A DNA stretch of 64,000 bases from positions 607,135 through 671,134 of the forward strand of contig CBDFLE010000005.1 in NCBI GenBank assembly GCA_965248925.1, written 5' to 3'. Below are positions 2,931-60,326 of this stretch, piece after piece; within the stretch, counting starts at the first letter, position 1, and each line of letters begins with the position of its first letter. The notes beneath the pieces are model-generated. The model was not told the origin of the DNA. It searched no databases and saw only the letters and a list, made by a program, of their open reading frames with translations. Both the position numbers and the translations under genes were made by a program. Source of the stretch: Candidatus Multivoradales bacterium (GTDB lineage Bacteria > Acidobacteriota > Thermoanaerobaculia > Multivoradales > J023).

Positions 2931-4307
2931 GTGGCTAAGGGAAGCGAGCCGGTCAGCAAGGCGATGGTGTTGGTGGTCGACGACGAGTCGTCGATTCGCG
3001 AGAGCCTGCGGATGATCCTTGAGTACGAGGGGTACCGGGTCGACGATGCAGCGAGCGGCGCGGCGGCGTTGGCCAAGGTAGCCGAGCGGGCACCGGAAGC
3101 GGTGTTGCTCGACATCAAGATGCCGGAGATGGACGGCCTCGATGTCCTCGCCGCATTCCGCGAGCGCGGCTACGACATGCCGGTGCTGATCATCAGCGGC
3201 CATGGAGATGTCAACACGGCGGCAGCCGCGACCCGCCAAGGGGCCTATGACTTCTTTGAGAAGCCCCTTGAACGGGACCGGGTTTTGGTCAGTCTGCGCA
3301 ATGCGGTAAGGGCTTACAGGCTTCAGTCCGAGAATCGTATTCGGCGGCACGAACCGGACCGGCTGACCGGTGATTCGCCGGCTTTGGAGGGCCTACGTCA
3401 GACTTTGGCCAAGGCTGCGCCGACCCCCGCTACTGTGCTGATCACCGGCGAGTCAGGAACCGGCAAGGAGTTGGTGGCGCGGGCCATTCACGAGCAGTCG
3501 GCGCGGGCCAACCGGCCATTCATTCAGGTCAACTGCGCCGCCATCCCCGACGAACTCATCGAATCGGAGCTTTTCGGCCACGAGAAGGGTAGCTTCACCG
3601 GTGCGGTGCGCAAACAGATCGGCAAGTTCGTCGCCGCCCACGGCGGCACGATCTTTCTCGATGAGATTGGCGACATGTCGGCCCGCACTCAAGCCAAGGT
3701 CTTGCGGGTGCTGCAAAACGGTGAGGTCGAGCCGGTGGGGGCGACCAACAACACCCGGGTCGACGTGCGGGTGGTCGCGGCCACCAACCGCGACTTGCGC
3801 CAAGGGATCGAGGACGGCGAGTTCCGTGAAGACTTGTTCTACCGCCTCAACGTCATCCCGATTCGCACTCCACCGCTGCGCGAGCATCTCGACGATCTGC
3901 CACAGTTGGTCAGTTACTTCGTCGAATGCTACACCCGAGCCAATAACTACCGTTCCAAGGTCTTCTCTGAAGACGCCCTGGCACACCTTAAGACCTTGCC
4001 ATGGAAAGGTAATGTCCGCGAACTCAAGAACCTAGTCGAGCGATTGCTTATACTCAGCTCAGGCGACGAAGTAAAAAAGCAAGACGTGGTGCAATACACC
4101 TCGGGCGCCCAGGCGGAAATCTCCGAGTCCCTGCTGGCGGTCAAGACGCTGCGCGAGTTTCGCGAAATGTCCGAGCGCCTATTCCTGCTACACAAGCTTG
4201 ACGAGAATGGTTGGAACGTCACCCAGACCGCCCAATCGGTCAAGACCCCACGCTCCAATCTGTACAAGAAGATGGAGCAGTACGACATTCGCCGCGACGG
4301 CTCGTAG
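2931..4307 (+). CDS. Sigma-54-dependent response regulator (NtrC/Fis family: REC + AAA+ sigma-54 activator + Fis HTH)
   Basis: Receiver 'LVVDDE...[11 protein letters not shown]'; sigma-54 interaction domain '[17 protein letters not shown]', '[15 protein letters not shown]', 'DEIGDM', '[10 protein letters not shown]'; C-terminal HTH. Start is ambiguous: GTG 2931 directly after the degP stop, or ATG 2964 (MVLVVDDE). Confidence 0.85.
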
Positions 4308-7653: not shown

Positions 7654-8805
7654 ATGTCCGAGGTCTTGATGGACTTTGCCCTGAGCGAAGATCAAACACT
7701 GATTCGTGACGAGGTCCGTCGCTTCGCCGAAGAGCGCATCTTGCCCGGCGTGGCGGAGCGCGACCGCAATCACCAGTTCCCGGCCGAGATCATCGCTGAA
7801 CTCGGTGAGCTCGGCTTTCTCGGCATGACGGTGGACGAAGAATACGGCGGCGCCGGATTCGACAGTCTCACCTATCTGCTGGCGGTCGAAGAGTTGGCCC
7901 GGATTTGTCCGGCAACGGCGGTCACCATGACAGTTACTAACTCGGTCTGCTGTTGGCCCATCGGCCGTTTTGGCAGCGAAGAACTCAAGCGGCGGGTTTT
8001 GCCCCAGCTAGCTGGCGAAGGCGCCCTGGGCGGCTTTGGTCTAACCGAGCCTGGCGCCGGCTCCGACGCTGGTGCAATGCGCACCACGGCCAAAAAAGAC
8101 GGCGAGCATTGGCTGCTCGACGGCGAGAAGGCATGGATTACCAATGCCGGAGAAGCCAAATACTTGGTGGTGTTGGCCAAGACTAACCCCGAAGCTGGTA
8201 AGCGCGGGATCACCGCATTCGTCTTGCCCACCGACACCCCTGGTTTCGAGGTGGGCACGGCGGAAGAAAAGGTTGGTCTGAAAGCGTCCCGCACCGCGCC
8301 GATCTACTTCAGCGGTTGCCGGGTGAGTGATGCCAATCGTTTGGGCGCAGAAGGGCAGGGCTTCAAGATCGCCCTCTCGACCCTCGATCATTCGCGTTTG
8401 GGTATTGCCGCCCAGTCGATCGGCATGCATCAGCGGGCGCTAGAACTGGCTACCTCTTACGCCAAGGATCGGCAGCAGTTCGGCCAGCCGATCAGCAACT
8501 TCCAGACCATTCAGTTCAAGCTTGCTGAGATGGCCACCGAGTTGGCGGCGGCTCGCGCTCTGACCTACCATGCGGCAATCGAAGAGCATTCCGCTATTGC
8601 CGGCCGGCTGGCCTCCCAGGCCAAAGTCTACGCCAGCGAGGCGGCCAACCGGGCCTGTTGGGAAGCGGTGCAGATTCACGGCGGCAATGGTTTTTGCGAA
8701 GACTACGAGGTTGCTCGCCTGTTTCGCGATGTGCGAGTGACGACCATCTACGAGGGCACCAGCGAAATGCAACGTCTGGTGATCGCGCGGCACTTGCTGC
8801 GCTGA
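7654..8805 (+). CDS. Acyl-CoA dehydrogenase (second paralogue)
   Basis: 383 aa. '[14 protein letters not shown]', 'QIHGGNGFCEDYEVARLFRD', 'IYEGTSEMQ'. 16 nt downstream of the first ACAD, same strand. Confidence 0.9.
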   Translation: MSEVLMDFALSEDQTLIRDEVRRFAEERILPGVAERDRNHQFPAEIIAELGELGFLGMTVDEEYGGAGFDSLTYLLAVEELARICPATAVTMTVTNSVCCWPIGRFGSEELKRRVLPQLAGEGALGGFGLTEPGAGSDAGAMRTTAKKDGEHWLLDGEKAWITNAGEAKYLVVLAKTNPEAGKRGITAFVLPTDTPGFEVGTAEEKVGLKASRTAPIYFSGCRVSDANRLGAEGQGFKIALSTLDHSRLGIAAQSIGMHQRALELATSYAKDRQQFGQPISNFQTIQFKLAEMATELAAARALTYHAAIEEHSAIAGRLASQAKVYASEAANRACWEAVQIHGGNGFCEDYEVARLFRDVRVTTIYEGTSEMQRLVIARHLLR

Positions 8806-26010: not shown

Positions 26011-27585
26011 TCACTGTTCTGGGAAGCTGCCTGGCCCTGGCTTGAGACCGGCCAGCCGCTCGGGGTTGATCTTTGCCTTCACCGTCCGCCGATCAATTCC
26101 CAGTCGCCTGGCGGTCTCGGAATAGCTGCCGTTCTTGGCATAGATCAAGGTGCAGTAGCGGCCCACCAGCTCTTCGGCGCTCAACTCGGCGCCCACTAAT
26201 GCGGCATCGAGGCCATCGTCGGCCAGCTGAGAAGTGTTTGGCGGCAGGTAGCGCCGGCGGATCAGTACATTGCGAACACATTGCTCGAGTTCGCGTACAT
26301 TGCCAGGCCAACGGTAGTCCGGTCCGATGGCCAACCGCCCATTGTCGTCGCGACCGTGAAAAATCCATTCCACAGTCTCCTCGGCCAGACCTTCCGCCTC
26401 CTGCTCATCAACCAGCCGCTTGGCCAACAAAGTGATCAGTTGCTGCAGGTCGTCGTCCGACTCCGCCAGTTGTGCCGCCAGGGAGGGAGTTTCGATGACA
26501 TCGGCGCACAGCCGGTAGTAGAGATCAGCGCGAAAGCTGCCACGCTGGATCAGCTCTTCCATATCGCGGTTGGTGGCGGCGATGATCTTGCCGGCGAAAG
26601 GGCGCGAACGGGTCTCGCCGAGGCGTTCGAAGCTACGGCTCTGCAAAACTCGCAAGAGTTTTACCTGGATTGCCGGATCGACCTCGCCGATTTCGTCGAG
26701 AAAGACAGTGCCGAGTGCGCCGCAGGCTTCCAGCCACCCGGTGCGGTCCTGTTCGGCGCCGGTAAATGCGCCGCGGCGGTGGCCAAAAAGTTCAGACTCG
26801 ATCACTGCCGGCGCCAATGCAGAGAGATTCAGGGGGAAGAAAGAGTCCTCGGGGTCGGCTGGAAAACAGCCTGTGTTGGCGTTAAACGGCAAGTAGCGTG
26901 CTAGTCCGATAGCCCTGGCTACCAGCTCCTTGCCGGTGCCGGAAGGGCCGGTGATTAGGGTTGAGATCTCCCCCATGCGGGGGAAGAGCGAACGCCGGTA
27001 ACGGTGCAAGTCGTGGGTGAAGATGGACTGCCAGACCGTGGCACGCAAGCGCGCGGCCGGCATCGATCCGCCGAGGATGTAGTGAAAGCAGTAGTGAAAG
27101 GCTCGGCGCACTTGGAAGAAGCAGGCGAATAGGTGGTCTGTTTCCAACCTGCCGGGCAGTTCGAGCGGAAGTTCGTTGAACAGACGCGCGACCTCGTCGC
27201 GGAATTTAGGCCAGAACGAGACCGGTCGCGACAGGCCGCTAGCCGTGCTGAGAAAGTGAAAGAAATCCAGCTGGTACTTGTCGTAGAGGAAGTAAGTTGC
27301 GACCTCGTAATAGAGCTGTCGCTCGTGCAGGGTGCCTTGTCGCCCCTGACGCAGGCGATCTCCTACCCGCTGGGTGATCCGAGCTGCCCGGCGCCCCAAT
27401 TCTTGCACATTAGGGTTGGGCAGACGGAAGGACTCGGTGCGATGCCAAACCGTGCCTAAATCGACAAAGTCTTCTCCCAGCGCTAGCTGCTCACAGCGAA
27501 TCCTCTCTGGCAGGAAAGGGTTGCACTGGGTGAGACCGGCGATCGCCTCGGCAAAGTTGTGTTCCTTGGAATCGAAGAGGGGCAT
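26011..27585 (-). CDS. Sigma-54 enhancer-binding protein with a non-receiver N-terminal sensory domain (unknown fold) + AAA+ activator + Fis-type HTH
   Basis: '[16 protein letters not shown]', 'ESELFGHRRGAFTGA' (the GAFTGA sigma-54 contact loop), 'DEIGEV', 'RLLRVLQ', 'IIAATNRD', 'YRWPGNVREL'. C-terminal 'YSETARRLGIDRRTV' HTH. The first about 200 aa have no REC/GAF/PAS signature I can recognise. Confidence 0.85.
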   Translation of the reverse strand: MPLFDSKEHNFAEAIAGLTQCNPFLPERIRCEQLALGEDFVDLGTVWHRTESFRLPNPNVQELGRRAARITQRVGDRLRQGRQGTLHERQLYYEVATYFLYDKYQLDFFHFLSTASGLSRPVSFWPKFRDEVARLFNELPLELPGRLETDHLFACFFQVRRAFHYCFHYILGGSMPAARLRATVWQSIFTHDLHRYRRSLFPRMGEISTLITGPSGTGKELVARAIGLARYLPFNANTGCFPADPEDSFFPLNLSALAPAVIESELFGHRRGAFTGAEQDRTGWLEACGALGTVFLDEIGEVDPAIQVKLLRVLQSRSFERLGETRSRPFAGKIIAATNRDMEELIQRGSFRADLYYRLCADVIETPSLAAQLAESDDDLQQLITLLAKRLVDEQEAEGLAEETVEWIFHGRDDNGRLAIGPDYRWPGNVRELEQCVRNVLIRRRYLPPNTSQLADDGLDAALVGAELSAEELVGRYCTLIYAKNGSYSETARRLGIDRRTVKAKINPERLAGLKPGPGSFPEQ

Positions 27586-37859: not shown

Positions 37860-39389
37860 ATGCAGCCAACCCAGCAACAGCGTGAGTCCAGCGAGCACTT
37901 ACCGACGGTGACTCTCAGTCTGATTTCCCACACCAATGTTGGCAAGACCACACTTGTGCGTACTCTGCTGCGCCGCGATGTCGGTCAGGTGCTGGACCGA
38001 GCCCACGTCACTGAGGTCAGCGAAGTCTATGAGTTGGCGCGCTGCGACAGCGGCGTGCTGCGCCTCTGGGACACCCCCGGCTTTGGCGACTCGGTGCGTC
38101 TCCTGCGGCGTTTACAGCGCCATGATCGCCCGCTGATGTGGTTTGTGCAGCAACTGTGGGACCGGATCACCGATCGACCCCTGTGGTGCGGTCAACAGGC
38201 GGTGTTGAACGTCCGGGACGAGGCCGATTTGGTACTCTACTTGGTTAACGCCGCGGAAGAGCCGCAGGCAGCTGGCTACGTCGCGCCCGAGCTCGATCTG
38301 CTGTCTTGGATGGATCGACCAGTGGTGTTGGTGCTCAACCAAGTAGGAGAAGCGGAGCTGAGCAGCGAGCTGCGGCGCCAACGGCTGGAGAGCTGGCGGC
38401 GGCACGTCGCCCGCTGGCCGATGGTGCGCGAGGTGGTCGAACTCGATGCCTTCAGTCGCTGCTGGGTGCAAGAGAATCTCTTGTTCGATCGCTTGCAGCC
38501 GCACCTGGGGGCAGCCAAGCAAGAGCTGTTCGGCGAGCTGTCGGCGTTGTGGCTGCGGCGCAATCTGGCGGTGTTCGAGCAAGCGGTCCGAGCCGTGGCC
38601 GAATATCTGGCGCTCACCGCCGAGGATTGCGAGTCTTTGCCTCCAGGCTCGACCGGCTTGAAGCGCATCTTCAGCGATGGCGAAGCAATGGCGGAAGACA
38701 AGCAGCGAGCGATCGAAAGCCTCGGCCAAAGACTGGTGACGCGCACCAGTCAGCTAATGCAGGAGCTGCTCGACGCCCATCAGCTGGAGGGTGAGGCGGC
38801 GATGGAGATCGAGAGCCAACTGGGTGCCTTCTCTGTTGCTGGCGAAGAGGGGCTCGACACCGAACGCGGCGCATTCTTGGGAGGTGTGCTCAGCGGTGCC
38901 CTCGGTGGCCTGGCAGCCGATTTGCTGGCTGGCGGACTCACTTTTGGTGGCGGAGTGCTCGCCGGGGCTATCCTGGGTGCCCTCGGCGGCGCCGGCTTGA
39001 GCCGTGGCTATCGCCTGGTCAAAGGAACCGGTCCGCCGGTGATCGGTTGGTCAGCGGCATTTCTCGAACGCCTGGTCGCCCAAGCGCTGGTGCGCTACCT
39101 GGCGGTGGCGCATTTTGGCCGTGGCCGGGGAGAGTTCGAGGCCCTCGAAGAGCCGCAGCGCTGGGGCGTCGCGGTGGCGGCGGCGATCACCATCCACGAT
39201 GCCGAATGGCAAGCCCTGTGGCAGCGCTTCGGCGAGCGAAAAACCAAGCACCCGGAGCCAGTGGCGCGCTTGCAGTCTCTGCTCGATGCCACCGCGCGGC
39301 AGATTCTCGCCACCGGCTATCCTGAGGCGGCGGCCTGGCTCGGCATCGCCGCCGCTGGTTCGGCCCCAAGCGGCTCCGGCGAAGGTTAG
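37860..39389 (+). CDS. P-loop GTPase (MMR_HSR1/YfjP-like G domain) with C-terminal glycine-zipper membrane segment, DUF3482-like
   Basis: G1 'ISHTNVGKTTL', G3 'DTPGFGD', G4-like 'VLNQ'. C-terminal 'GGVLSGALGGLAADLLAGGLTFGGGVLAGAILGALGGAG' glycine zipper. Confidence 0.6.
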   Translation: MQPTQQQRESSEHLPTVTLSLISHTNVGKTTLVRTLLRRDVGQVLDRAHVTEVSEVYELARCDSGVLRLWDTPGFGDSVRLLRRLQRHDRPLMWFVQQLWDRITDRPLWCGQQAVLNVRDEADLVLYLVNAAEEPQAAGYVAPELDLLSWMDRPVVLVLNQVGEAELSSELRRQRLESWRRHVARWPMVREVVELDAFSRCWVQENLLFDRLQPHLGAAKQELFGELSALWLRRNLAVFEQAVRAVAEYLALTAEDCESLPPGSTGLKRIFSDGEAMAEDKQRAIESLGQRLVTRTSQLMQELLDAHQLEGEAAMEIESQLGAFSVAGEEGLDTERGAFLGGVLSGALGGLAADLLAGGLTFGGGVLAGAILGALGGAGLSRGYRLVKGTGPPVIGWSAAFLERLVAQALVRYLAVAHFGRGRGEFEALEEPQRWGVAVAAAITIHDAEWQALWQRFGERKTKHPEPVARLQSLLDATARQILATGYPEAAAWLGIAAAGSAPSGSGEG

Positions 39390-39390
39390 G

Positions 39391-40659
39391 ATGCTGCCGA
39401 TGCAAGTCTTTTTCACCAACCTGGGTTGCAAGCTCAATCAAGCCGAAGTCGACAAGATGGCGCGGCGCTTTGTCGCCGCCGGCCACCGCTTGGCGCCCCG
39501 TTTAGAGGAGGCGGAGCTGCATGTGGTCAATTCTTGCTCCGTCACCCACTTGGCGGCTCGCGACTCGCGCAAGCTGGCTCGCCGAGGCGGCCGCTTGGTG
39601 GCCGGTTTGCGGACCGTTCTGACCGGCTGTTACGCCACCGGCGCCGCGGACGAAGCCGCTGCTTTGGTAGGAGTAGATCTGGTGGTGACCAATGAACAGA
39701 AAGAGCAGCTGTTGGAGAGAGTTCACGCGGCCTTTCCAGAGATCGTACCGCCGGCGCGAGAGGCGTTGCCAGTGCCCTATGTGCCGCTGGATTTTGCTCA
39801 TGCCCGGGCGCTGGTCAAAGTCGAGGACGGCTGCAATATGCGCTGTTCCTTCTGCATCATCCCCTTCCTGCGGGGGCGCCAGCGTAGCCGGCCTTTGGCC
39901 GAGATCGTCGACGAGGTGCAGGCGCTCAGCGCCGGGGGCTATGCTGAAGTGGTGATTACCGGGGTGCAGATCTCCGAGTATGACGACCAAGGCCGGCGAC
40001 TCTATGATCTGACCCGCGCCCTGCTCGCCCAGCCGGCCGGCGCGCGGTTGCGGCTGACCTCGCTTGCGCCGTGGAAGTTTGACCACCGGCTGCTGGCGCT
40101 GTGGGCCGATCGGCGCCTCTGCCGGCACTTCCACATATCGCTGCAAAGTGGCTCGAGCCGGACCTTGCGGCGTATGCGTCGCCCCTATTCGGCTGCCCAG
40201 TATGCAGAGTTGGTGGAACGCATTCGGGAGCAGATTCCAGGGGTAGCGATCACCACCGATGTGATCGTCGGCTTTCCGGGCGAAAGCGACGAAGAGTTCG
40301 CCGACAGCCTGGCCTTTGTTGGACGCATGGGCTTTGCCAGGCCCCATCTTTTCACCTATTCCGAACGCCCAGGTACCGCCGCCGCCGAGCTTCCTGATGC
40401 CCTACCCCCGGCCATCAAGAAAGAGCGCATGGCGGCGTTCAGACAAGTAGCCCTGCGATCGGATTTAGCTTTTCGCCAGAGCCAGCTCGGCGCCACCCTG
40501 GGGGTGGTCTGGGAGGAGCGGCGCGCTGGGCGGTGGAGCGGTCTGAGCGACAACTACTTGCGGCTATTCGCCGAGTCGACCGCAGATCTCAGCGGGCGCC
40601 AGGGACGGGCGCGGCTGCTCGAGATCGAGGGTCCGGGCGTCACTGCCGAGATCGTATAG
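39391..40659 (+). CDS. mtaB: tRNA (N6-threonylcarbamoyladenosine) methylthiotransferase, MtaB-type radical SAM enzyme
   Basis: N-terminal MTTase domain 'VFFTNLGCKLNQAEVD...VVNSCSVT'. Radical SAM 'CNMRCSFCIIP'. C-terminal TRAM-like region. The ATG at 39391 immediately follows the stop of the upstream GTPase gene. Confidence 0.8.
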   Translation: MLPMQVFFTNLGCKLNQAEVDKMARRFVAAGHRLAPRLEEAELHVVNSCSVTHLAARDSRKLARRGGRLVAGLRTVLTGCYATGAADEAAALVGVDLVVTNEQKEQLLERVHAAFPEIVPPAREALPVPYVPLDFAHARALVKVEDGCNMRCSFCIIPFLRGRQRSRPLAEIVDEVQALSAGGYAEVVITGVQISEYDDQGRRLYDLTRALLAQPAGARLRLTSLAPWKFDHRLLALWADRRLCRHFHISLQSGSSRTLRRMRRPYSAAQYAELVERIREQIPGVAITTDVIVGFPGESDEEFADSLAFVGRMGFARPHLFTYSERPGTAAAELPDALPPAIKKERMAAFRQVALRSDLAFRQSQLGATLGVVWEERRAGRWSGLSDNYLRLFAESTADLSGRQGRARLLEIEGPGVTAEIV

Positions 40660-50394: not shown

Positions 50395-50614
50395 GAGCTT
50401 CCTCCTCAGAAAGCCGTGGTTTGCCCCAGAAAGTGAGCTGAGCAACACATGTTAGCAATCTCTGACTTGCCACGGCGATGCAGGAGATTTCTCTCGCTCT
50501 GCCGTTTCACTCGCCAGCGAAGCGCGCCTCCGCTGAATCAGCCGCGGCGTCGGGAACACATTCGCTGGGCAAAGAATTGGAACCAAAACGAGGCAAAGAC
50601 GGTCCAATATCTAG

Positions 50615-51100
50615 ATGAACCTACTCGATCTTCTGCGCCATGAAGCGCCGCTGAGTCTGGATGGCTTGACGGCAGGCGTAGCTCTCTTTTGGCCGGTCAT
50701 CGGAGCCGAGATCCTAGCGGTCGGCAGCCGCTATCGTGGTACGACTAGACGCGGTAGCGTGGCAGAGGCCCTCTGGCCTCTGCTGCAAGGGCGGCTACTG
50801 CTACCAATTCTTCTGTGGGGCCTGATTTCAACTCGCTCGCTTTCAAGGGCGGTCTGGTACGCAAGTGTTTCGCACGGCCCCTCGTGGGAAGAACTCTTGA
50901 CCTCCTTGGCGCTATCCATGTTCCACGGCGGCCTATTGCTGGCCACGGTGATGAGCCTTCGCACTGTGTGGCTTTCACCTCGCGGCCTGCTTGCGGCTCA
51001 CACTGGCTTGACCGGAGTCCATCGAATCACCTTTCAAATCGTGCTGACTTCGGTAGTCTTCTTACAGGTTCTCATTCTGCTGATTCTCACCCGACTCTGA
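50615..51100 (+). CDS. Small integral membrane protein (about 4 TM), hypothetical
   Basis: 161 aa, four hydrophobic segments. No motifs recognised. The coding call rests on length and hydropathy only. Confidence 0.35.
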   Translation: MNLLDLLRHEAPLSLDGLTAGVALFWPVIGAEILAVGSRYRGTTRRGSVAEALWPLLQGRLLLPILLWGLISTRSLSRAVWYASVSHGPSWEELLTSLALSMFHGGLLLATVMSLRTVWLSPRGLLAAHTGLTGVHRITFQIVLTSVVFLQVLILLILTRL

Positions 51101-51261
51101 CTTGCCAACTGAAGTTGCCGCTAGGAGATCGCCAAGGAAACAGCGTCCTTGGGTTGGCGGTAGGCTCACCAGGAGCGGCGCCACGAGATTTCTTCATCAG
51201 GGGGGCAAGATTGCTAACACTACCCAGGCGAGGGTCCAGGAGGAGTCAATTCCTGGCTTGG

Positions 51262-53148
51262 TCAATCTCCCAACAGCAGTTTGAGTCCTTCGATCTTCTG
51301 ATTGATCTCCCCTAAGCCAAGATCGCGGTAGCGGTTGGGTAGGAAGCGGCTGTCGGTGCATTCCTTGGTGGCCACCAAATCCATCAACTGCAAGCGCTCG
51401 ATGTGGGCCGAGGGGCGCATCTCCTCGATCACCCCGGAGACTATTTCGGCCACCGGCTTGGCACTCTCGCCTTCATCTTGGGTCGCGTGTAAGCGCAAGG
51501 CGCGCACCAGGATGCCTTCCATCTCGTTACCGCCGATCTGGTTGTTGTCGGGCAGGGGAGGCAGGTCTTGTTGGTCGATCTCGAGTCCGACTTTGCGAGT
51601 CATGGCCCAGAACAGCTCGTGACGGCTCTCGGCGTCGCCAGGGGGGAAGAGGGGAATGTGCACATCGAGCCGGCCTTGGCGCTTGAGGTCGACCTCCAGC
51701 AGGTCGGGGCGGCTGGTGGCGAAGACCCACAAGATCTTGCCGCGGTTGCGGGTGTCGCTCATCTCCTTGGCCAGCATGCCGTAAATGCGGCCGGAAAGGC
51801 CCGAATCACTCGAATCGCCGCCTCGCTTGCCGGTCATCTGATCGGCTTCGTCGACGAAGACGATCACCTGGCCCAGAGCGCGCAAGATGGTGAAGATGCG
51901 CTCCAGGTTGCCCTCGGTGGCACCCACCCAACGTTCGCGAAAGTTTTTCATTTCGACCACCGGGATGCCGACTTCTCCGGCCCAGCAAGTCACTAAGAAA
52001 GTCTTGCCGGTGCCGATGCGACCGCAGAGCAAGTAACCCATGGGCAGGGCGCGAGTGCGGCCGGCTTTGAGCAAGGCGGCGTCTTGGCGCAACCAGGCTT
52101 TGGCCTCGTGATGGCCGGCGACATCGTCGAGGGTGCGCTTCGACTCGATGAAGGCAATGCGGCCGAAGGCCTCCTTCTCGATCAGCTCTTTCTTCACTCG
52201 CGTCAAGTAGTCGCTGGTGATGCGCTCGTCGCCTTCGAGAGCCCGCCGCACCAGGGAGCGGACGTTGACCCGCGACAGGCCTACCAACTTGGCGGCCAAG
52301 GCTTCACGATCGACTTCGCAAACATGCTCGAAGTCTGCCACCTGGTCGGTTAGGTGGTGGACGAAGCGGCGGATCTCAGCCGCCTTGGGCAGAGTCAGTT
52401 TGATTTTTGACGAATAAGGGCTCTCGACCAGCAGCCGGTTGAGATCGGCCAGGTTCTCGGTGATCAGTACGTTGGCGATCACCGCCTGGGTGATCGACGG
52501 ATCGGAGCCCCAGTCGAGCAGCCGAATCAGGGTCTGGCTGAGATCACCCGAGAGGTGCAGGGCTTCGCCCTGGGGGGCGATGAAGTGGGCATAGTCGATC
52601 ACCACGGCTACTTTCAGTGGCGCCCGCACCCGCTGACCCTGGTCGTCGAGGTCGGTGCGGTGCTGGCTGCCGCGGATGAAGCGATCGATGATCTCCAACG
52701 CCCGCTTGGCGTCGCGCGGCAGCTGGTTGGCTAGGTTCAGGGTCTCCATCTTGTCCTTGCCGGTGCTGGGCAGGGAGGCCCAAGAGGTACCCTGGAAGGT
52801 GTCAAAGGCCTTGAGGAAACGATGCACATGGTCGCCGCCCTTGCGCACCCGGATGCCGCGGCCGCGGTCGTAGTGCAGCACGACATCGAAGGGAGCGAAC
52901 ATCACCTCGGTGAGGAAGGTGCGCAGCGAGACGTAACGCTCTCCCTTGGCCCCGGTGGCGGCCGGCGCGGCGACTTCGTCGGCATCGCCAAACGCATCAC
53001 GGCGCGGATCGCCGGCTAGAGGGCCCGCCGGCGCTGGCGCCGGCACCAGATCAGCGACGTTGCCATAGAGGATGAACTGGCTCGCCGAACCGCTGCGAAA
53101 GACATTGCGCATTTCCCCGGCCCAGGCCGGCAAGGAGGCTTCGCTCAT
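51262..53148 (-). CDS. AAA+ ATPase, classic clade, single C-terminal AAA module with about 350-aa N-terminal region of unknown function
   Basis: Walker A 'GRIGTGKTF', Walker B 'VIVFVDEADQM', sensor-1/SRH region 'ILWVFATSRPDLLEVDLKRQGRLD' (second-region-of-homology Arg). The spacing 'VEMKNFRERWVGATEGNLERIF' between the Walker motifs resembles Vps4/katanin/FtsH-type modules. Last gene of the pspA operon. Confidence 0.8.
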   Translation of the reverse strand: MSEASLPAWAGEMRNVFRSGSASQFILYGNVADLVPAPAPAGPLAGDPRRDAFGDADEVAAPAATGAKGERYVSLRTFLTEVMFAPFDVVLHYDRGRGIRVRKGGDHVHRFLKAFDTFQGTSWASLPSTGKDKMETLNLANQLPRDAKRALEIIDRFIRGSQHRTDLDDQGQRVRAPLKVAVVIDYAHFIAPQGEALHLSGDLSQTLIRLLDWGSDPSITQAVIANVLITENLADLNRLLVESPYSSKIKLTLPKAAEIRRFVHHLTDQVADFEHVCEVDREALAAKLVGLSRVNVRSLVRRALEGDERITSDYLTRVKKELIEKEAFGRIAFIESKRTLDDVAGHHEAKAWLRQDAALLKAGRTRALPMGYLLCGRIGTGKTFLVTCWAGEVGIPVVEMKNFRERWVGATEGNLERIFTILRALGQVIVFVDEADQMTGKRGGDSSDSGLSGRIYGMLAKEMSDTRNRGKILWVFATSRPDLLEVDLKRQGRLDVHIPLFPPGDAESRHELFWAMTRKVGLEIDQQDLPPLPDNNQIGGNEMEGILVRALRLHATQDEGESAKPVAEIVSGVIEEMRPSAHIERLQLMDLVATKECTDSRFLPNRYRDLGLGEINQKIEGLKLLLGD

Positions 53149-53153
53149 CGGGT

Positions 53154-54029
53154 CTATTCTCCTTGTAGGGCGCTGGGTAGGCGAGGCAAATCGGGGACCG
53201 GGCTGTCGAGTTCGCTGCCCAAGTCACCCAGCAAGTCGGCGTGCTGTTCCATCCACAAGCTGGTCTCCTGCATTGATGAGCTGACCTGATCGAGGCGACT
53301 CGACAGCTGATCGGCGCCGCCGCTGACCGCGGTCTCCTCACGGATCAACTCGACTTGGCCCTCGATGCGCCGCAACTCGGCATCAATCACATCGAGACTC
53401 TCGCGGGCGCGGGCGAAATTATCTAGCCGCTTGCCGGTGATCTCCAACGTGCTCCGCAGCGATCGCGCCAACGCCGGTTGGGCCTCGGCGTCGATTCCTT
53501 CCAGCCGCTCTTCGAGTCGGGTGATCTCGCCGCGCAGGCCGTCCGGGTTGAGATTGTGCAGGTTGGCCATGATCGCCCGCCGCGATGAGAGCAGGCGGAG
53601 AAAGATCCGCAGCATCTGGTTGAGGCCATGATTTCGTAGTTCGCCGACGTTGCCCAGGCTGTCTCCACGGTCCTGGCGCAAACCGAGAATGCGGCGACAC
53701 TGGTCGAGCAGCTGGCGATAGCGCTGCCTGCTGTCTGCCGATAGACGGCTCAAGGTGTCACCGATTCTGGCCTCATAGTTCTCTTGCACCGCCAGCAAGC
53801 GTTCGCCCTGAATCAACTTTTGAAACCTGGCACTGCTGGCCATCCCGAAGAGGTAGGTCAACTCGCCAGCAGCCCCCAGCAGCCAGAAGCCGGGATTGGC
53901 GATACCCAGCACGCCGAAGATGCCCAAGGCCATCCAATTGGCCGGCAACTGGCCCAGCAGTGGCAGGCTAGCCCTGCGGCTGAAGGCTTCCTTCAGATAG
54001 TCGCCGAATCCGAGCGGCCTCGCCATCAA
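53154..54029 (-). CDS. Membrane protein with 2 N-terminal TM helices and a long C-terminal coiled-coil region (TelA/XpaC-like architecture)
   Basis: TMs '[33 protein letters not shown]'. Heptad-rich C-terminus ('[20 protein letters not shown]...[17 protein letters not shown]'). 4-nt overlap with the upstream ABC ATPase gene and a 5-nt gap to the AAA+ gene. Confidence 0.5.
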
Positions 54030-54904
54030 TCTGCCTCTGCTTTTGCCAGGGTCCTCGCCACCTCGCGCACCGCGTCGCGAAAATCACTGCGCTCCTGCAC
54101 CAACAGCGGATCGGCCAAGCGATCGGGAGGGAAGATATCGTCGAAAGTGTGGGCGATAGTGCCTGGTGCCGAAGACATTACCCACACCCGGTCACCGAGG
54201 TAGACCGCCTCGGAAAGGGAGTGGGTGATCAGGAAAACGGTGGCCTCGACCTCGTGCCAGAGTTCGGTGATCAAGCGCTGCATTTCATAGCGAGTAGGTT
54301 CGTCCAAAGCCGAGAAAGGCTCGTCCATCAAGATAATGCGCGGCTTGAGCACCAGGGTGCGAGCGATCGCCACCCGCTGCTGTTGGCCGCCGGAGAGCTG
54401 CTTGGGGTACTTCTTCTCGTGCCCATCGAGGCCCACTCGGCGGATCAGCTGCATCGCCCGGTCTTCCATTTCCGAGCGGCTCAAGCCCAGCTCGCGCTTG
54501 GCCAGTTCGAGACCGAAAGTGACGTTACGCAGCACGGTGAGGTGGGGAAAAGAGCTGTAGCGCTGAAAAATCTGGCCCCGGTCACGGCCCGGCCCGGTGA
54601 CTTCCTGGCCGCGAACCTTCACCGAGCCCCGAGTCGCCGGATAGACGTCGGGGAAGCCCTGAATCAGATTGAAAATCGTTGACTTGCCACAGCCGGAAGG
54701 GCCGATCAGCGAGATGAACTCTCCCTTGTCTTTGACATCCTCGACGCGAAAATCAACATCGCGAATGGCGGTGTAGGCACGCGCCGTGCCGGGATTGAAG
54801 GTCTTCTCAACGCTGGCGAATTCCACCACCGGCGGTTCTTGACTCGCCAATCCGGCCGTTGCCTGGCCGGCTGCCGCGCCAGCCTTCTCCTGGGAGCCAC
54901 TCAT
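54026..54904 (-). CDS. ABC transporter ATP-binding protein (NitT/TauT nitrate/sulfonate/bicarbonate-type)
   Basis: Walker A 'GPSGCGKST', signature '[13 protein letters not shown]', Walker B '[11 protein letters not shown]', H-loop 'ITHSL'. Confidence 0.9.
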
Positions 54905-55932
54905 CGATGGGCCTCACGGTAGGGAAAGAGCTTGTGGCCGAGCATCTGCCACAGCTTGTCGGTGAGGAAGGCGACGGTCACGATCAGCAGAATGATCAAA
55001 TAGATGTGCGGGCGGAGTTCGCCGCGGCGCTGTGAAATGAGGATCATGCCGCCGACTCCCTTGCCGATGTCGACCATCTCGACCAGGATGATGTAGCTCC
55101 AACCGATGCCAAAACCGAGGCGCATGGCCTGGAAGACATCTTGCCACGACACCGCCAGCAGCACCTTCAAGACCGCTTGTAGCTTGCTGGCGCCGAGGGT
55201 GTAAGCGGTCTTGAGATAGATCTCGTCGACCCCTTCCACCGCGGCGACGATCAACGGCAACATGTAGATCGAGAAGGCCATGGCCAGAAAAGCGACCTTC
55301 TGCTTTTCGTCAGTGCCGAAGAGACTCAAACTGAGTGGCACCAGGGCGGGAATCGGCAAGTAGGCGCCGAAAACCGCCAGCGGGTTGAACATCGCCTTGA
55401 TCTTGCTGAAAGCACCCATCAACAGACCCAGGGGAAAGGCGATCGCCAATCCCACCGCGAATCCTGCTAGCACTCGGCCGAATGAAATTCCCAGATGGCG
55501 GACCACCGCCCGATCGAACCACAGGGAGGGGAAGGACCGCGCCACCTCCAGTGGACTGGGGAGGATGACCGAGGAGATCATCCGCGATTCCACCGTCGGG
55601 CCGGCGGTCACCCCCCACCACAGAGCGAGGAGGGCGAGGATTGGCGTCAGACCCAACAGCCAATGCATCCAAGTAGGTACGTCTTCGCGAATGCGCAGCC
55701 AGCCGAAGGGGCCGCGCGAGGGTGGAGGAGCGCCCGCCTCGAGCAGTTCGTCAACCTCTTCCTGGTCGGTAGCCGCCCCTTCTTCGTCACTCTGGCTAGG
55801 CTCGTCGCCGTCGTTGTAGAACAAAGACAGCAGGCCGCCGTCGTCGTCTTCCTCCGCTGTGGTTGGGTTGCCGGCGGCGGATGCATCGACGGGCGACGGC
55901 GGCTGGCGCCTATCTTGGCCGCGATCACTCAA
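54901..55932 (-). CDS. ABC transporter permease (NitT/TauT family) with acidic N-terminal extension
   Basis: 6 TM. EAA-like loop '[24 protein letters not shown]'. About 90-aa D/E-rich cytoplasmic N-terminus. 4-nt overlaps on both sides. Confidence 0.85.
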
Positions 55933-55936
55933 GGCT

Positions 55937-57667
55937 CTACTGTGACTCCGGCGGGTAAACCGAGACCTCGACCCGACGGTTCAAGGCGTGGTTGTCGGCA
56001 TCGCCGAGATCGGCGGGTTCGTTCCAGCCCATCCCTTCGATGACGAATTTGTTGGGATCGAACTGATACTTCTCGACCAAGACCCTACCCACCGCTTCGG
56101 CGCGCTCGGCGGAAAGCTGCTTCACGTCCTCGAAGCGCACCCCACGGCCGCGCATTGACCCGTCAGTGTGGCCGACGATGGCCACCACCGCGCGCTCGTA
56201 TTGGCCGGCCAGTCGGGCGACTCTTTCGAGGGTGCCGTCGACCGTCGGATCGTAGAGCGTGCCGGTCAAGCCATTACCGTCGTCATCGTGCTTCGGCTCG
56301 TAGAGATTCGATGAGTTGGGGTAGAAGTTGATGCGGATGGTCTGGGTCAGAATCGGCGACTCGGCCCGCACCTTGGAGTAGGTGGTGGGCACGAAGCTGG
56401 TGTGGTATTCATCCTTCTGATGGGCGAAAGTGCCTTCGCTGTCGAGGGCCTTAAGGATGCTGAAGTCCATCACTTCATCAAAGCGGGCCGGCGTGCCGAT
56501 CAGGCCCAACTCGCGGTAAACAAAGGTGATGTTCTTCCAGGTCCGCTCGAAGTTGGCGGGCTCGTTCTGGTTGAGGAAGAACGCCTTGTTCTCGGCGAAG
56601 TTGGTGCGGTGGGCGTCGGCTTCCATGCCTTGCACCTCACCGACGGGCATGCCGTAGCCCTCAGACATCCATTGGAAAGCGTTGGCCTTGAAGCTGTCGT
56701 CCTGGCCCAGCTGTTCCATCGCCTTGAAGATCCCCGATACCAATCCCTTGACGATCTCCGGGTGATCCTTAGCGAAGTCGGCCCGCACCGCCCAGATATC
56801 GGCGATCAGCTTGTTGGCTTCCACCGTGGTGGTGAGAATCTTGGTGCCGGCGACCTTCTCCGGGATGTTGTAGATGTCCGGTGCCCAGGAGACACAAGCG
56901 TCGATCGATTTGTCGGCGACAAAAGCGGCCGCCGCCTCGAACGCGCTGGCAGTGAACTTGTGGTTGATCTCGCTCGGTTGAATGCCGGCATTGAGCAGCA
57001 GGTTGTTGAGGAAGTATTGCGAGGGGCTGTTCTGAGCATAGACCACCGTCTTGCCTCGCAGATCCTCGGCGGTCTCGATGTTGCCGCGCACGACGATGCC
57101 ATCGCCACCGTTGGACCAGTCGATCAGCTGCGGGATGCGGGGCGCGGTGCGTGAGTCCTGCATCAAGCCGGGGGCGAAGAGCACCATCATGTCCAGGGTG
57201 CCCCACAACACATGGCTATTGCCCGAGGCATAGGCGTCGCGGGCCACCACCGGATCGTCGATCAACTTCAGATTAACCTTGAAGCCGTGCTCCTTGAAGA
57301 AGATGCTGTCCTCGTTGGGAGCGAAACCACCGTTGGCGGCGACGATCGGCAACCAGCCAATCCAGACATTGATCGGGAACTGGACAACTTTTTCGCTGTC
57401 GTCCCACTTGTAGTTGCTGACCCCCTGTACCGGAGGCAGCTTCTCTGACGCCACGTAGGCGTATTCGTTGACTGTCGTCACCCCCTGAGTGTCGGGAGCC
57501 TCGATCAGCTGCTGGTCTTTGAACGCAGCCAAGTCGATGTCTGCACTGCCCTTGCCTGAAGGCGCGATCAGGTCGCGAAAGTAGTAACCCGCGCCACCGA
57601 GCAGCGCCAGGATGAAGAGTAGAAGCACCAACTTGCCGAGAGCAGTCGGTCCGGTTTTTTCAGCCAT
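55937..57667 (-). CDS. Fusion protein: NitT/TauT-type ABC substrate-binding domain + C-terminal OmpA-like peptidoglycan-binding domain
   Basis: N-terminal TM/signal anchor. About 330-aa SBP region. C-terminal 'AVVAIVGHTDGSMRG...LSAERAEAVGRVLVE...NRRVEVSVYP', the OmpA/MotB signature. Confidence 0.72.
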   Translation of the reverse strand: MAEKTGPTALGKLVLLLFILALLGGAGYYFRDLIAPSGKGSADIDLAAFKDQQLIEAPDTQGVTTVNEYAYVASEKLPPVQGVSNYKWDDSEKVVQFPINVWIGWLPIVAANGGFAPNEDSIFFKEHGFKVNLKLIDDPVVARDAYASGNSHVLWGTLDMMVLFAPGLMQDSRTAPRIPQLIDWSNGGDGIVVRGNIETAEDLRGKTVVYAQNSPSQYFLNNLLLNAGIQPSEINHKFTASAFEAAAAFVADKSIDACVSWAPDIYNIPEKVAGTKILTTTVEANKLIADIWAVRADFAKDHPEIVKGLVSGIFKAMEQLGQDDSFKANAFQWMSEGYGMPVGEVQGMEADAHRTNFAENKAFFLNQNEPANFERTWKNITFVYRELGLIGTPARFDEVMDFSILKALDSEGTFAHQKDEYHTSFVPTTYSKVRAESPILTQTIRINFYPNSSNLYEPKHDDDGNGLTGTLYDPTVDGTLERVARLAGQYERAVVAIVGHTDGSMRGRGVRFEDVKQLSAERAEAVGRVLVEKYQFDPNKFVIEGMGWNEPADLGDADNHALNRRVEVSVYPPESQ

Positions 57668-57717
57668 CGGAGTTCCTCCGTTGTTTTCTAGTGCAAGAAG
57701 TTTCTAACCAGCGGCAA

Positions 57718-58476
57718 TCAGCCTTCACTGACGCCGGGGCCCATGTCCTTGATTGGGACCGCAGATTCTGCGGCCGGGGCGGCGCTCTCGTCCACCGGCA
57801 TATCGAGGCCATAGGTAGCGGCGAACTCGGCCAGCGCCTGGTCGGCCAGCGCAGCTTGTTCGGCGTCTTTGAGGTCCACTTCACTGATGTCGATCGAGGA
57901 CTCGGCGACCCGCGCTCGGCCAGCGGCCTTGTCACGGCGCTCGGTGAGGTAGTCCTCAACACGGTTCAGGGTGTCGCCGGATCCGCCGATCTCGGTGATC
58001 ATGCCCTGGGCCATCTCTTGCAGTTCGGCCTGGGCTTCGAGCATCTGCGTTTCGCTGAGCATGCGCTTCAACGAATCGATCTTGGCCTGCGCCTCGCGCA
58101 CCGCCACATCGCGGGACTTGACCAGCTTCTTGTAGGTGCCATCGGCGGCCTCGAGCTGGCCGCGATTCTCCTCCAACTGCTCACGCACCGTCTTCAGTTG
58201 CAAGGCGTACTGGCCGGCGGCGGCGCGATTGCCCACTTTGAGGTTGGCGGCGGCCTTGGCGGCCAGCTGGCTGTCCTGCTTCTCCAGATTCTTGACCTGG
58301 CGCATCAAGCGCTCGACAAAGGCCGCGTGATTGGCCAGGCTCTCGTTGAAGCGCGAGATCTGACTGCGAAGGTTCTCCTTCTCGGCCTCGATCAAGGCCC
58401 GCGGGTTGGACTTCTCGATGCCGGAGATAAACAGGCTCAGGAAGCCCTTGAAGAGGTTGCTGAGGCGTCGAAACAT
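57718..58476 (-). CDS. pspA: PspA/IM30 (Vipp1) family protein
   Basis: 253 aa from 'MFRRLSNLFKGFLSLFISGIEKSNPRALIEAEKENLRSQ', matching the PspA/Vipp1 N-terminal amphipathic helix and helix alpha1. Coiled-coil throughout. AAGGAGA RBS. The ORF-track 58617 start is a non-coding extension that runs through the promoter. Confidence 0.8.
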   Translation of the reverse strand: MFRRLSNLFKGFLSLFISGIEKSNPRALIEAEKENLRSQISRFNESLANHAAFVERLMRQVKNLEKQDSQLAAKAAANLKVGNRAAAGQYALQLKTVREQLEENRGQLEAADGTYKKLVKSRDVAVREAQAKIDSLKRMLSETQMLEAQAELQEMAQGMITEIGGSGDTLNRVEDYLTERRDKAAGRARVAESSIDISEVDLKDAEQAALADQALAEFAATYGLDMPVDESAAPAAESAVPIKDMGPGVSEG

Positions 58477-58608
58477 GGGCGGCGTCTCCTTCAGACACCG
58501 CGGCTTCCTCGAAGGCTGGCCGCGGCTCGCGTCGTTCGCCGGGGAGGGTAGCGGAGCAGCAAAGCGCCCGGCATCGTACGTGGTGAATTTCAATCGTGGG
58601 GCGATTCT

Positions 58609-58625
58609 AGCAAACATCTAGCCAA
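58609..58625 (-). promoter_or_regulatory. Candidate sigma-54 (-24/-12) promoter for the pspA operon: TTGGCTAgatgtTTGCTa on the minus strand
   Basis: GG and GC dinucleotides at exactly the consensus spacing (TGGCAC-N5-TTGCW; mismatches only at -22/-21), about 135 bp upstream of the pspA start. A 6-bp-arm inverted repeat GCCACC-N6-GGTGGC (58641-58658) lies 16 bp further upstream. Confidence 0.45.
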
Positions 58626-58871
58626 TAAGGCGCGTCTGCGGCCACCGACAGAGGTGGCGGCGAATTCTTCCCACAGCTGTCTAAACGTCGCCTTTGCAGA
58701 TAGGTACGGCTACCAGACCGGCGCTATTCGGTCAGCCGATCTAAAGCTGCTCTCTTCGGCCGCCAGGGGTATCAAGAAGGCTTCTGGGGAGTAGCCGCAG
58801 TCGGGCGCCGCTCCTTGTCCCGCCTTGGCAAGCGGCTAGCTGGTTGGCGCTAGCGCAACTGAGCCAGGACC

Positions 58872-60326
58872 CTAGGGCGAAACGCTAGTCCACTCGCTGG
58901 TACTGTTGGACTCGAAGCCATCCTCGAAGATCTTGCCAACGGTGCCGGTGTTAACGGTGATACCGAAACCCGTAGCGGTAGCGAAATCGACGCTGACCGA
59001 GATTGACGCGGCGGCATCGACAAAAGTTTCGCCAACCGTCCACATGGTACCCGCATTGTCACCGAAATTGGCCGGGGGATCGGCATCGTCCACCGCCCAA
59101 GAGGGTTCCGAGCGACCGACCACTACCTGGTGGATAATCACCGCGTCGCCGACGAGTGCTGCTTCGTAGTCGCCGCCGCGCAGCCGAGCTTCGACTGTGT
59201 ACCAATGCGAGCTATCGATCGCAATACGCACCAATTGAAAATTGCTGGCGCCGATCAGAGAAGTGCGGTCGAGCAAGATCTCGGTGCTGCTGTCGGCCGG
59301 CGGCTCGAAGCGCCGCGCCGGCGCGAACCAACCGAGGGAGTCCTTGTGGTAGGCATTCACATGCTTGCCCAACCGGCCGTAGGTGCCGTCCACGACGGAG
59401 TAGGAGGTGGCAGAACTCATCACGTCCCAAGGGCTGTCGTAGGGATTGGAATCGCCGTCAAAATTGTTGGCGTGGGGTAGGCCGAATCCATGTCCCATCT
59501 CGTGGGCGATCACCCCTTCGTCGGCGTAGCCCCAGGGCGGCTCCCAAGTCGTGCGCCAAGTCTTCGCCACCCCATCGAGGGTGGCGAAGCGGCTGCCGCC
59601 CCAAGCGCAACAGTCAAGCAAGCCGTTGAGCATGATGTTGATGCCTGCGAAGGGATTGCCGCCGCCCGAGAAGTCGACAAACGGGTCCGCCGCGGCTGTG
59701 CAATCGTTGAAAATAAGATTCAGGTTGGCGTTGGTACCGCTGCCCGGAGTGGGTACGTAGCTGTTATGGGTACCGGGTAGGGCCACCCAATCTATTGCCG
59801 TCGAGCCGATGATGTCGATTTGGCCGGCTGAGACCTCACGCCAAAAGTGATCCAGCCCGCCGGGTGCGTTGGCATACATGCCGTTGAAGAAACCCTGGTC
59901 CCGCGGCTCGGTAGCTACGTCCGAGAACTTACACAGCAACGATACCCAGGGCTGGGAACCGCTGACTACCCCACGCGCATCAGTTTCGCCGAGCAAGCGG
60001 ATGGCGGCGACGTCAAAGTGCTGCTCGCCAGCGGCGGCTTGGGCGGCGAGGCGGGGGAAAACCCGCACGCGCCGACCGTCCCATCTGGCCACGCCACCGC
60101 GCAGCAACTCGAAGCTCATGCTCAGCTCCCGGCTGACTCCTTGTTCGTCGGTGAGCAGAATCCTGCGCGGGGTGGCGATTACGGCACCGGGCTGCGAATC
60201 GCCCCAGACGATGCTCAACCAACCGACTACGGAGGGCGCGAGGTCAGCGGCGAGCGTCGGGGCCGCCAGCAGCATGGTCAGCAGACAGAAGGCGGCGGAG
60301 CACGATGGCACTTTGAAGGAGGTCAT
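58872..60326 (-). CDS. Secreted zinc metalloprotease with metzincin-type HEXXHXXGXXH motif
   Basis: Signal peptide 'CLLTMLLAAPTLAAD'. 'VIAHEMGHGFGLPHANNFDG' zinc-binding motif. Large N-terminal pro/beta region. C-terminal about 90-aa beta domain ending 'FEDGFESNSTSEWTSVSP'. Confidence 0.72.
   Translation of the reverse strand: MTSFKVPSCSAAFCLLTMLLAAPTLAADLAPSVVGWLSIVWGDSQPGAVIATPRRILLTDEQGVSRELSMSFELLRGGVARWDGRRVRVFPRLAAQAAAGEQHFDVAAIRLLGETDARGVVSGSQPWVSLLCKFSDVATEPRDQGFFNGMYANAPGGLDHFWREVSAGQIDIIGSTAIDWVALPGTHNSYVPTPGSGTNANLNLIFNDCTAAADPFVDFSGGGNPFAGINIMLNGLLDCCAWGGSRFATLDGVAKTWRTTWEPPWGYADEGVIAHEMGHGFGLPHANNFDGDSNPYDSPWDVMSSATSYSVVDGTYGRLGKHVNAYHKDSLGWFAPARRFEPPADSSTEILLDRTSLIGASNFQLVRIAIDSSHWYTVEARLRGGDYEAALVGDAVIIHQVVVGRSEPSWAVDDADPPANFGDNAGTMWTVGETFVDAAASISVSVDFATATGFGITVNTGTVGKIFEDGFESNSTSEWTSVSP

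Follow-up and report, generated by a model that had tools for sequence, protein, structure and literature searches.

PspA, a predicted tandem AAA+ ATPase and an OmpA-domain ABC importer in a conserved bacterial operon

We examined a six-gene operon on the minus strand of a 64,000-nucleotide (nt) stretch of DNA (hereafter, the window) from Candidatus Multivoradales bacterium (GenBank assembly GCA_965248925.1, contig CBDFLE010000005.1, positions 607,135 to 671,134). In this operon, pspA is followed by the genes for an ATP-binding cassette (ABC) importer, a membrane coiled-coil protein and an AAA+ ATPase. Judged from gene order across related genomes, the six genes very probably form one functional unit. 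The best-supported mechanism, to which we assign a probability of about 0.55, is that the AAA+ ATPase would act on polymers of PspA.

The locus is a further member of an operon class that has been described but is experimentally uncharacterised. Ravi et al. (2024, mSystems, PMC11237479) list in their Table S3 the order PspA, PBPB+OmpA, permease, ABC-ATPase, TM+Snf7 and inactive-AAA+AAA, with OGG56892.1 from Candidatus Handelsmanbacteria as the example. Gene content and order are identical to those of the window operon, and there is no architectural difference. In their description, the ATPase consists of a pair of classical AAA+ domains, the N-terminal one being inactive, and they proposed ATP-dependent remodelling of the membrane or PspA comparable to that by Snf7/Vps4, together with a link to solute transport. 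The preliminary description of the window had treated a PspA system with an OmpA-tethered ABC importer as unprecedented; this does not hold, as both the exact operon and the Vps4 analogy had been published. No experimental follow-up of the operon class was found in the literature. Because the idea is already in print, the value of the locus lies in its being a well-delimited example with testable details, not in discovery. To the earlier account we add counts of phyletic spread and synteny, a high-confidence model of the ATPase structure, a tail motif on PspA and a promoter analysis; in addition, the labelling of the membrane protein as Snf7 was not reproduced.

Layout and conservation of the operon

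Domains of the six open reading frame (ORF) products were assigned using Pfam and NCBIfam searches. The pspA gene (57718..58476, 252 residues) encodes a protein of the PspA/IM30/Vipp1 family (PF04012). It is followed on the same strand by the genes for a 576-residue substrate-binding protein (SBP) with a C-terminal OmpA-like domain (55937..57667; Pfam NMT1 and OmpA), a TauC/SaoP-like importer permease (54901..55932; BPD_transp_1 PF00528, NCBIfam SaoP/TauC), a TauB/SaoA-like ABC ATPase subunit (54026..54904; PF00005 with E 3.4e-29, NCBIfam TauB with E 1.9e-57), a 290-residue membrane-hairpin coiled-coil protein without a Pfam or NCBIfam match (53154..54026) and a 628-residue AAA+ protein (51262-53148; PF00004 match at residues 373-499). 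All six ORFs were present as previously outlined, with the domains given there. The junctions had been described as overlaps or single-digit gaps throughout, and this was correct for four of them. From the coordinates, the SBP and permease genes are separated by 4 nt, the permease and ABC ATPase genes overlap by 4 nt, and the membrane protein and AAA+ genes are separated by 5 nt; the ABC ATPase and membrane protein genes overlap by 1 nt, or abut with no gap if a TTG start is used. The pspA/SBP junction, however, spans 50 nt, and the SBP gene has its own GGAGG. No minus-strand intrinsic terminator was found between pspA and the transporter genes or elsewhere inside the operon.

The 290-residue membrane protein was used as a marker, and its alignment with homologues was used to scan one genome per species. 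Relatives turned up in 170 species genomes, which belong to at least ten phyla. For comparison, we took the 80 best loci and read their gene order by tblastn with the six window proteins. Hosts included Acidobacteriota (five classes), Gamma- and Deltaproteobacteria, Gemmatimonadota, Eisenbacteria, Krumholzibacteriota, Calditrichota, Latescibacterota, Sumerlaeota and others. The order PspA-SBP-permease-ATPase-membrane protein was present at every locus with upstream room (68/68), and all six genes were co-directional and kept their order at 60 of the 63 loci with room on both sides. The gene order is therefore not peculiar to this genome, and the view of the six genes as a conserved unit stands. 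Among the 60 complete loci, 51 were strictly contiguous. Four had a true insertion before the AAA+ gene (L027, L032, L058 and L066), and the apparent gap at five further loci reflected a partial tblastn alignment. PspA and the SBP were the best-conserved operon proteins: PspA identity was 66-79% across loci (57% at a rearranged Sumerlaeota locus), and SBP identity was 61-79% across phyla. The membrane protein was the least conserved product (34-58% identity).

More distant relatives of the AAA+ protein were informative about the core of the operon. The operon was intact at one locus even though its AAA+ protein was only 39% identical to that of the window (L089). At two loci with AAA+ relatives of 32-33% identity, the transporter was missing and the orders were TerB-PspA-AAA+ (L085) and AAA+-coiled coil-PspA (L088). 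In Candidatus Sumerlaeota (L082, 1-5688), the genes were rearranged to SBP-permease-ATPase-membrane protein-PspA-AAA+, which places PspA next to the AAA+ gene. Some other distant AAA+ relatives stand alone. Because AAA+ relatives keep PspA without the transporter, the core genetic link is between PspA and this AAA+ family; the transporter and the membrane protein appear, on gene order, to be a conserved extension of that core. At L089, a gene with a VWA domain (7817-8635) overlaps the end of the AAA+ gene and is a possible extra partner.

PspA, the AAA+ ATPase and the proposed mechanism

The pspA product had been placed in the ESCRT-III superfamily, and profile comparisons bore this out. It matched PF04012 with 40.8 bits against a cutoff of 33.9, over profile positions 2-215 of 220. 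In addition, a profile built from the operon PspA proteins and two distant AAA+-linked ones matched the Vipp1/PspA cryo-electron microscopy chains with E values of 1.6e-10 to 2e-9 over positions 2-221. By these criteria, we regard the product as a genuine member of the PspA/Vipp1 family. Its most likely start is the ATG at 58476, which has the Shine–Dalgarno sequence AAGGAG and whose methionine is invariant in orthologues. The ORF that starts at 58617 is almost certainly overlong, since the orthologues all begin at the 58476 methionine.

The N-terminus of PspA is an amphipathic helix. At the C-terminus, a variable Ala/Pro/Glu-rich linker follows the last helix, and the window protein then carries KDMGP. 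A motif of the form [KR][DE][ML]GP was found five to ten residues from the PspA C-terminus at 64 of 71 loci; this conserved tail is reported here for the first time. The distant AAA+-linked PspA proteins, with an overall identity of about 20%, terminate in EKTL, EKTLGP or EKTLG. A flexible tail with a short motif would be expected if it serves an AAA+ pore or a docking site as a handle.

The ATPase had been described as a classic-clade AAA+ protein with one module and a long non-catalytic N-terminus in the place of the MIT domain of Vps4. One catalytic module was indeed found; however, the N-terminus proved to be an AAA+ domain as well, in degenerate form. When a profile of the first 345 residues was compared with the profile of the C-terminal AAA module, hhalign gave an E value of 3.1e-5 and a probability of 73%; the two were in register over the Walker B strand, sensor 1 and the beginning of the lid. 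In the AlphaFold2 model, which was built from 77 sequences (predicted local distance difference test (pLDDT) score 91.4; predicted template modelling (pTM) score 0.88), residues 8-335 adopt a degenerate AAA+ fold of the alpha/beta type. Foldseek aligned the full-length model with the D1-D2 tandems of p97/Cdc48/Rix7/AFG2 over 560-600 alignment columns with E of about 1e-20; sequence identity in these structural alignments was about 18-20%. The ATPase is thus modelled as a tandem of a pseudo-D1 (about residues 1-335; 52144..53148, minus strand, assigned from hhalign, AlphaFold2, Foldseek and motif logos) and an active D2 (about residues 336-628; 51262..52143, minus strand, PF00004 with E 8.7e-25), without a separate N-domain.

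The motifs of the two halves were compared in the family alignment. The pseudo-D1 has LYGNVxDL at the place of Walker A and VIDYAHF at the place of Walker B. The D2 keeps Walker A (GTGKT), Walker B (VFVDEAD, with E434 as the Walker B residue) and the pore loop (KNFRxKWVG). The arginine noted earlier in the second region of homology was confirmed, R490 and R493 of the D2 being invariant in the family. On these motifs, the D1 is predicted to be catalytically dead and the D2 to be intact. Pex1/Pex6 and NSF are other tandem AAA+ proteins in which one ring is inactive.

The sequence affinities of the ATPase point away from Vps4. The best PDB sequence matches of the active module were the D2 domains of VAT/Cdc48/AFG2/p97, and the top 60 matches were all ATPases of the VAT/Cdc48/p97/AFG2/NVL/Rix7/NSF type. 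The NCBIfam score of the protein was highest for CDC48 (80.8 bits), followed by FtsH (65.7), PAN (57.6) and CdvC (46.4). A Vps4_C domain was not found by Pfam. The MIT-like N-terminus that had been suggested was not supported either: the Pfam search contained no MIT match, and the AlphaFold2/Foldseek check returned a pseudo-D1 of the p97/Cdc48/Rix7 type in that region. The two AAA+ folds, the missing Vps4_C domain and the score of CDC48 over CdvC also argue against a Vps4-like build. The ATPase is therefore best placed outside the Vps4 family, although it may do the job of Vps4.

We propose the following mechanism. PspA would polymerise on the cytoplasmic face of the stressed inner membrane. 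The hairpin-anchored coiled-coil protein would serve as a membrane-bound recruiter or organiser, comparable to LiaI, PspBC or CdvA. The AAA+ hexamer may then engage the flexible C-terminal tail of PspA that ends in [KR][DE][ML]GP, and would thread PspA protomers through the D2 pore, leading to disassembly of the polymer and recycling of its subunits. This would be the function of Vps4 for ESCRT-III, carried out by an ATPase of a Cdc48-like lineage. The wall-tethered ABC importer may import a small solute during envelope or osmotic stress, or may report the status of the periplasm or the peptidoglycan. The PspA-AAA+ linkage in distant relatives without the transporter fits such an ESCRT-III/Vps4-like division of labour. 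Several observations weigh against it. At three loci, the five upstream genes were present and no AAA+ gene was found within 2 kb downstream; at L028, L033 and L040, PspA is without the tail motif despite an adjacent or downstream AAA+ gene; and no MIT domain was found in the AAA+ protein, either by Pfam or in the full-length model.

The resemblance to the ESCRT-III/Vps4 (CdvB/CdvC) system is that a gene for an ESCRT-III-superfamily polymer is linked to a classical-clade AAA+ protein with an aromatic pore loop, and that a short conserved motif stands at the end of a flexible C-terminal tail on the polymer subunit. In contrast to Vps4/CdvC, the window ATPase has no MIT and no Vps4_C domain, contains two AAA+ modules instead of one, and is nearer in sequence and structure to the D2 of Cdc48/p97. 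The tail motif of the window PspA is not a known MIT-interacting motif of ESCRT-III, and the cassette additionally carries an ABC importer. With the type II tandem unfoldases Cdc48/p97/VAT, Rix7 and AFG2, the ATPase shares the D1-D2 tandem fold and intact D2 motifs. Unlike them, it lacks an N-terminal substrate- or adaptor-binding domain, its D1 lacks Walker A and B entirely, and it is a bacterial protein that is operon-linked to PspA.

Similarly, the operon can be compared with E. coli pspF-pspABCDE and B. subtilis liaIH, with which it shares a PspA homologue and one or more membrane partners. The small membrane protein LiaI of the lia system recruits the PspA homologue, and the hairpin protein may be analogous to LiaI. 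With the E. coli psp system, the operon further shares a sigma-54 promoter, putative in the window, and an AAA+ partner; however, PspF is an NtrC-type transcriptional activator, whereas the window AAA+ protein is of the classical-clade unfoldase type. The operon contains no pspB, pspC, pspF or liaI homologue and includes a transporter, and no such canonical partner was found among the immediate neighbour genes, in agreement with the preliminary description.

A Vps4-like ATPase 'appears absent in bacteria' according to a 2025 review (PMC7619361). How bacterial ESCRT-III-type polymers such as PspA and Vipp1 are taken apart is a question that this cassette makes directly testable, because at least 170 species genomes of at least ten phyla have PspA beside a pore-loop AAA+ unfoldase, which provides a defined gene set. 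The PspA C-terminal motif and E434 in the D2 Walker B offer two handles. Our most far-reaching proposal, which we put forward tentatively and consider rather unlikely as a whole, is that the ATPase is an independent bacterial counterpart of Vps4 from a Cdc48-like lineage: a pseudo-D1/active-D2 hexamer would read the [KR][DE][ML]GP tail of PspA, disassemble its polymers, be held at the membrane by the hairpin adaptor and be coupled, mechanically or through regulation, to a peptidoglycan-tethered, envelope-sensing ABC transporter. If true, this would overturn the textbook view that bacterial ESCRT-III systems are without a dedicated disassembly ATPase.

The membrane protein, the importer and alternative explanations

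The membrane protein has two short hydrophobic helices (15 and 20 residues; residues 29-64) with an invariant NPGFW turn between them, followed by a cytoplasmic helical bundle and a Pro-rich C-terminal tail. The tail often contains LPxLP, and in many members poly-Pro and basic residues come next. Its AlphaFold2 model had a pLDDT of 86.5 and a pTM of 0.78. These helices may anchor the protein as a re-entrant hairpin within the inner leaflet and not as two full membrane spans.

Ravi et al. (2024, PMC11237479) label this protein 'SIG+TM+Snf7', a membrane-anchored divergent Snf7. If the label in their Table S3 is right, the protein would itself be a divergent ESCRT-III subunit that co-polymerises with PspA, and the AAA+ protein would remodel a two-component filament. 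The Foldseek match of highest probability, an archaeal CdvB2 filament (probability 0.63 but E 0.31), is in line with this idea, as are the conserved short C-terminal motifs that both proteins carry behind flexible linkers. However, the structural matches were buried among unrelated helical bundles that scored equally high or higher. None of the 52 members of the membrane protein family matched a Snf7 or PspA Pfam profile even at E<=5, hhalign against the operon PspA profile gave a probability of 0.2%, the same as the reversed-sequence control, and comparison of the membrane-protein profile with PDB sequences returned nothing relevant. The Snf7 label is possible but unproven and was not reproduced here, and we think a two-component filament rather unlikely. 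The role of a membrane recruiter or organiser would be the more conservative reading of the protein.

The main rival to an action on PspA polymers is that the AAA+ protein works on membrane proteins, as an extractase or chaperone in the style of Cdc48/Msp1/FtsH for the hairpin protein or the transporter, and that PspA merely protects the membrane. The structure of the ATPase does resemble the Cdc48/p97 unfoldases, which extract membrane proteins. In 51 loci, the ATPase gene comes immediately after that of the membrane coiled-coil protein, and the coiled-coil protein has a conserved Pro-rich C-terminal tail of its own. At another locus (L091, AAA+ 34% identical), the order is permease-ABC ATPase-343-residue protein-AAA+ and no PspA was seen; the contig is too short upstream, and the 343-residue protein did not match the membrane-protein profile (E 0.013). 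On the other hand, the AAA+ relatives at L085 and L088 keep a PspA neighbour and lose both the transporter and the transmembrane protein, and at the Sumerlaeota locus PspA lies directly beside the AAA+ gene. We therefore consider this explanation unlikely and continue to favour PspA polymers as the substrate.

The importer subunits were assigned to known families. The binding domain of the SBP is TauA/SsuA/NMT1-like: Pfam NMT1 was above its cutoff, and the PDB match to TauA (6ssy) had an E value of 2.3e-11. The OmpA-like domain scored 36.8 bits against a cutoff of 27.2, with PDB matches to the OmpA-like domains of Omp38/PomB, and the sequence motifs GHTD...LSAERA...NRRVEV were present. The SBP also has an N-terminal membrane anchor. 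From these assignments, the transporter is predicted to be a TauABC-type importer with an SBP that is held in the inner membrane and bears an OmpA-like domain for peptidoglycan binding. The SBP, permease and ATPase match the TauABC/SsuABC (NitT/TauT) families, and the OmpA-like domain has the motif residues that are canonical in MotB/PomB, Pal and YiaD; unlike in TauABC/SsuABC, the SBP is fused to a peptidoglycan anchor and an N-terminal membrane anchor. The start codon of the permease is uncertain. Its acidic N-terminal extension was considered as a docking site and dropped, since the extension is variable in orthologues. At three loci from Vicinamibacteria (L074-L076), the permease frame is open upstream into the SBP OmpA domain with no stop, which may be an SBP/permease fusion or just a same-frame overlap.

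It is still less probable that the operon serves solute uptake in osmotic or nutrient stress (e.g., of the sulfonate/taurine/betaine type) with PspA, the coiled-coil protein and the AAA+ protein as co-regulated accessories without mechanical coupling: all three transporter parts are standard NitT/TauT-type components and the SBP is, with PspA, among the best-conserved operon proteins, but the gene order and translational coupling (overlaps and gaps of 0-5 nt), strict across phyla, argue for stoichiometric co-assembly, a simple nutrient importer would not usually have its SBP fused to a peptidoglycan anchor, and PspA-AAA+ pairs occur without the transporter.

Promoter region and neighbouring genes

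The operon had been described as sigma-54-driven on account of a -24/-12 element with exact GG...GC spacing. Upstream of the first gene, we searched for TGGC-N7-TTGCW with a distance of ten bases between GG and GC. The element was present as TGGCTAGATGTTTGCT at 58609-58624 on the minus strand with the correct GG-N10-GC spacing, about 133-148 nt upstream of the pspA ATG. The 64-kb window contained five -24/-12 matches, as compared with 1.39 expected. The longer form of the element, TGGCTAGATGTTTGCTAG (58607..58624, minus strand), is an exact copy of the extended motif TGGC-N6-TTTGCTAG, which occurred exactly twice in 64 kb; at most 0.19 copies would be expected even with one mismatch. The second exact copy lies at 1217-1234 on the plus strand, upstream of an HtrA/DegP-like protease gene (1408-2928, plus strand; Trypsin_2 and PDZ domains), which is directly followed by the gene for an NtrC-type sigma-54 response regulator (2931-4307, plus strand). 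Another sigma-54 activator gene lies at 26011-27585 on the minus strand (Sigma54_activat with E 5e-46, GAFTGA); the N-terminal region of its product, about 200 residues, is uncharacterised.

The related loci presented a different picture. No comparable -24/-12 match was found upstream of pspA at any of 69 related loci, which taken on its own speaks against the sigma-54 reading. Instead, a sigma-70-type promoter, TTGAC(N)-N17/18-TGn-TAnnnT, was found in 37 of 70 upstream regions (69 loci and the window, the latter not among the 37), centred about 120 nt upstream of the pspA start codon. A sigma-70-type score of at least 10 was reached by 41% of the regions and by 0.8% of shuffles. In loci L004-L083, TTGAC(N)-N17/18-TGC-TA(G/T)nCT was conserved across phyla at a distance of about 100-175 nt before pspA, so that the leader would be about 90-100 nt long.

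The operon could, therefore, be transcribed in this genome from the usual sigma-70-type promoter of the family, with TGC-TAGAAT as the extended -10 box and the -24/-12 match as a coincidence. Indeed, the 3' half of the sigma-54 element overlaps an extended -10-like box, TGC TAGAAT (58604-58612), which corresponds to the conserved gTTGCTAg box of the orthologous promoters; the TTGCTAG of the window aligns with it. However, the window has no -35 box at the expected distance (2/6 matches), and on this comparison its genome appears to have lost the -35 box of the family promoter. Two exact copies of the extended motif, one of them beside the HtrA-like gene, and two sigma-54 activator genes in the window also count against a coincidence. 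We give the sigma-70-type promoter a sizeable minority share of our confidence.

Because of the second exact motif copy, the activator genes and the missing -35 box, we read the sigma-54 match as plausible and not as accidental. Sigma-54 dependence of the operon in this genome is accordingly rated as plausible, at somewhat better than even odds; the part of the earlier claim that concerns the element stands, whereas the element does not extend to the related loci. The element seems to have replaced, specifically in this lineage, the sigma-70-type promoter usual in the family. Its shared sequence suggests a sigma-54 envelope-stress regulon common to the pspA operon and the HtrA-like gene, and in our proposed mechanism the operon would probably be transcribed from the promoter type that it has in common with this envelope protease gene. 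A copy of the extended motif with one mismatch, TGGCAGCCGATTTGCTGG, at 38911-38928 on the plus strand is a possible third sigma-54 promoter; it lies inside or beside the ORFs 37860-39389 and 39115-40659. The 9-mer TGCCAAGGC, common to both sigma-54-type upstream regions, was within chance expectation and was not interpreted.

The leader and the surroundings of the operon were also inspected. An Rfam scan of 50400-59000 gave no match, and the 122-nt pspA leader folded no better than shuffles (z 0.57); therefore, we propose no riboswitch or attenuator. A reading of the locus as a defence system was rejected, since the PADLOC matches were only generic (NBD, MotB-domain and AAA). The upstream neighbour gene (58872-60326, minus strand), which is not kept beside the operon at the other loci examined, encodes a secreted protein with a weak match to M6 (immune inhibitor A-like) metalloproteases and the sequence HEMGHGFGLPH.

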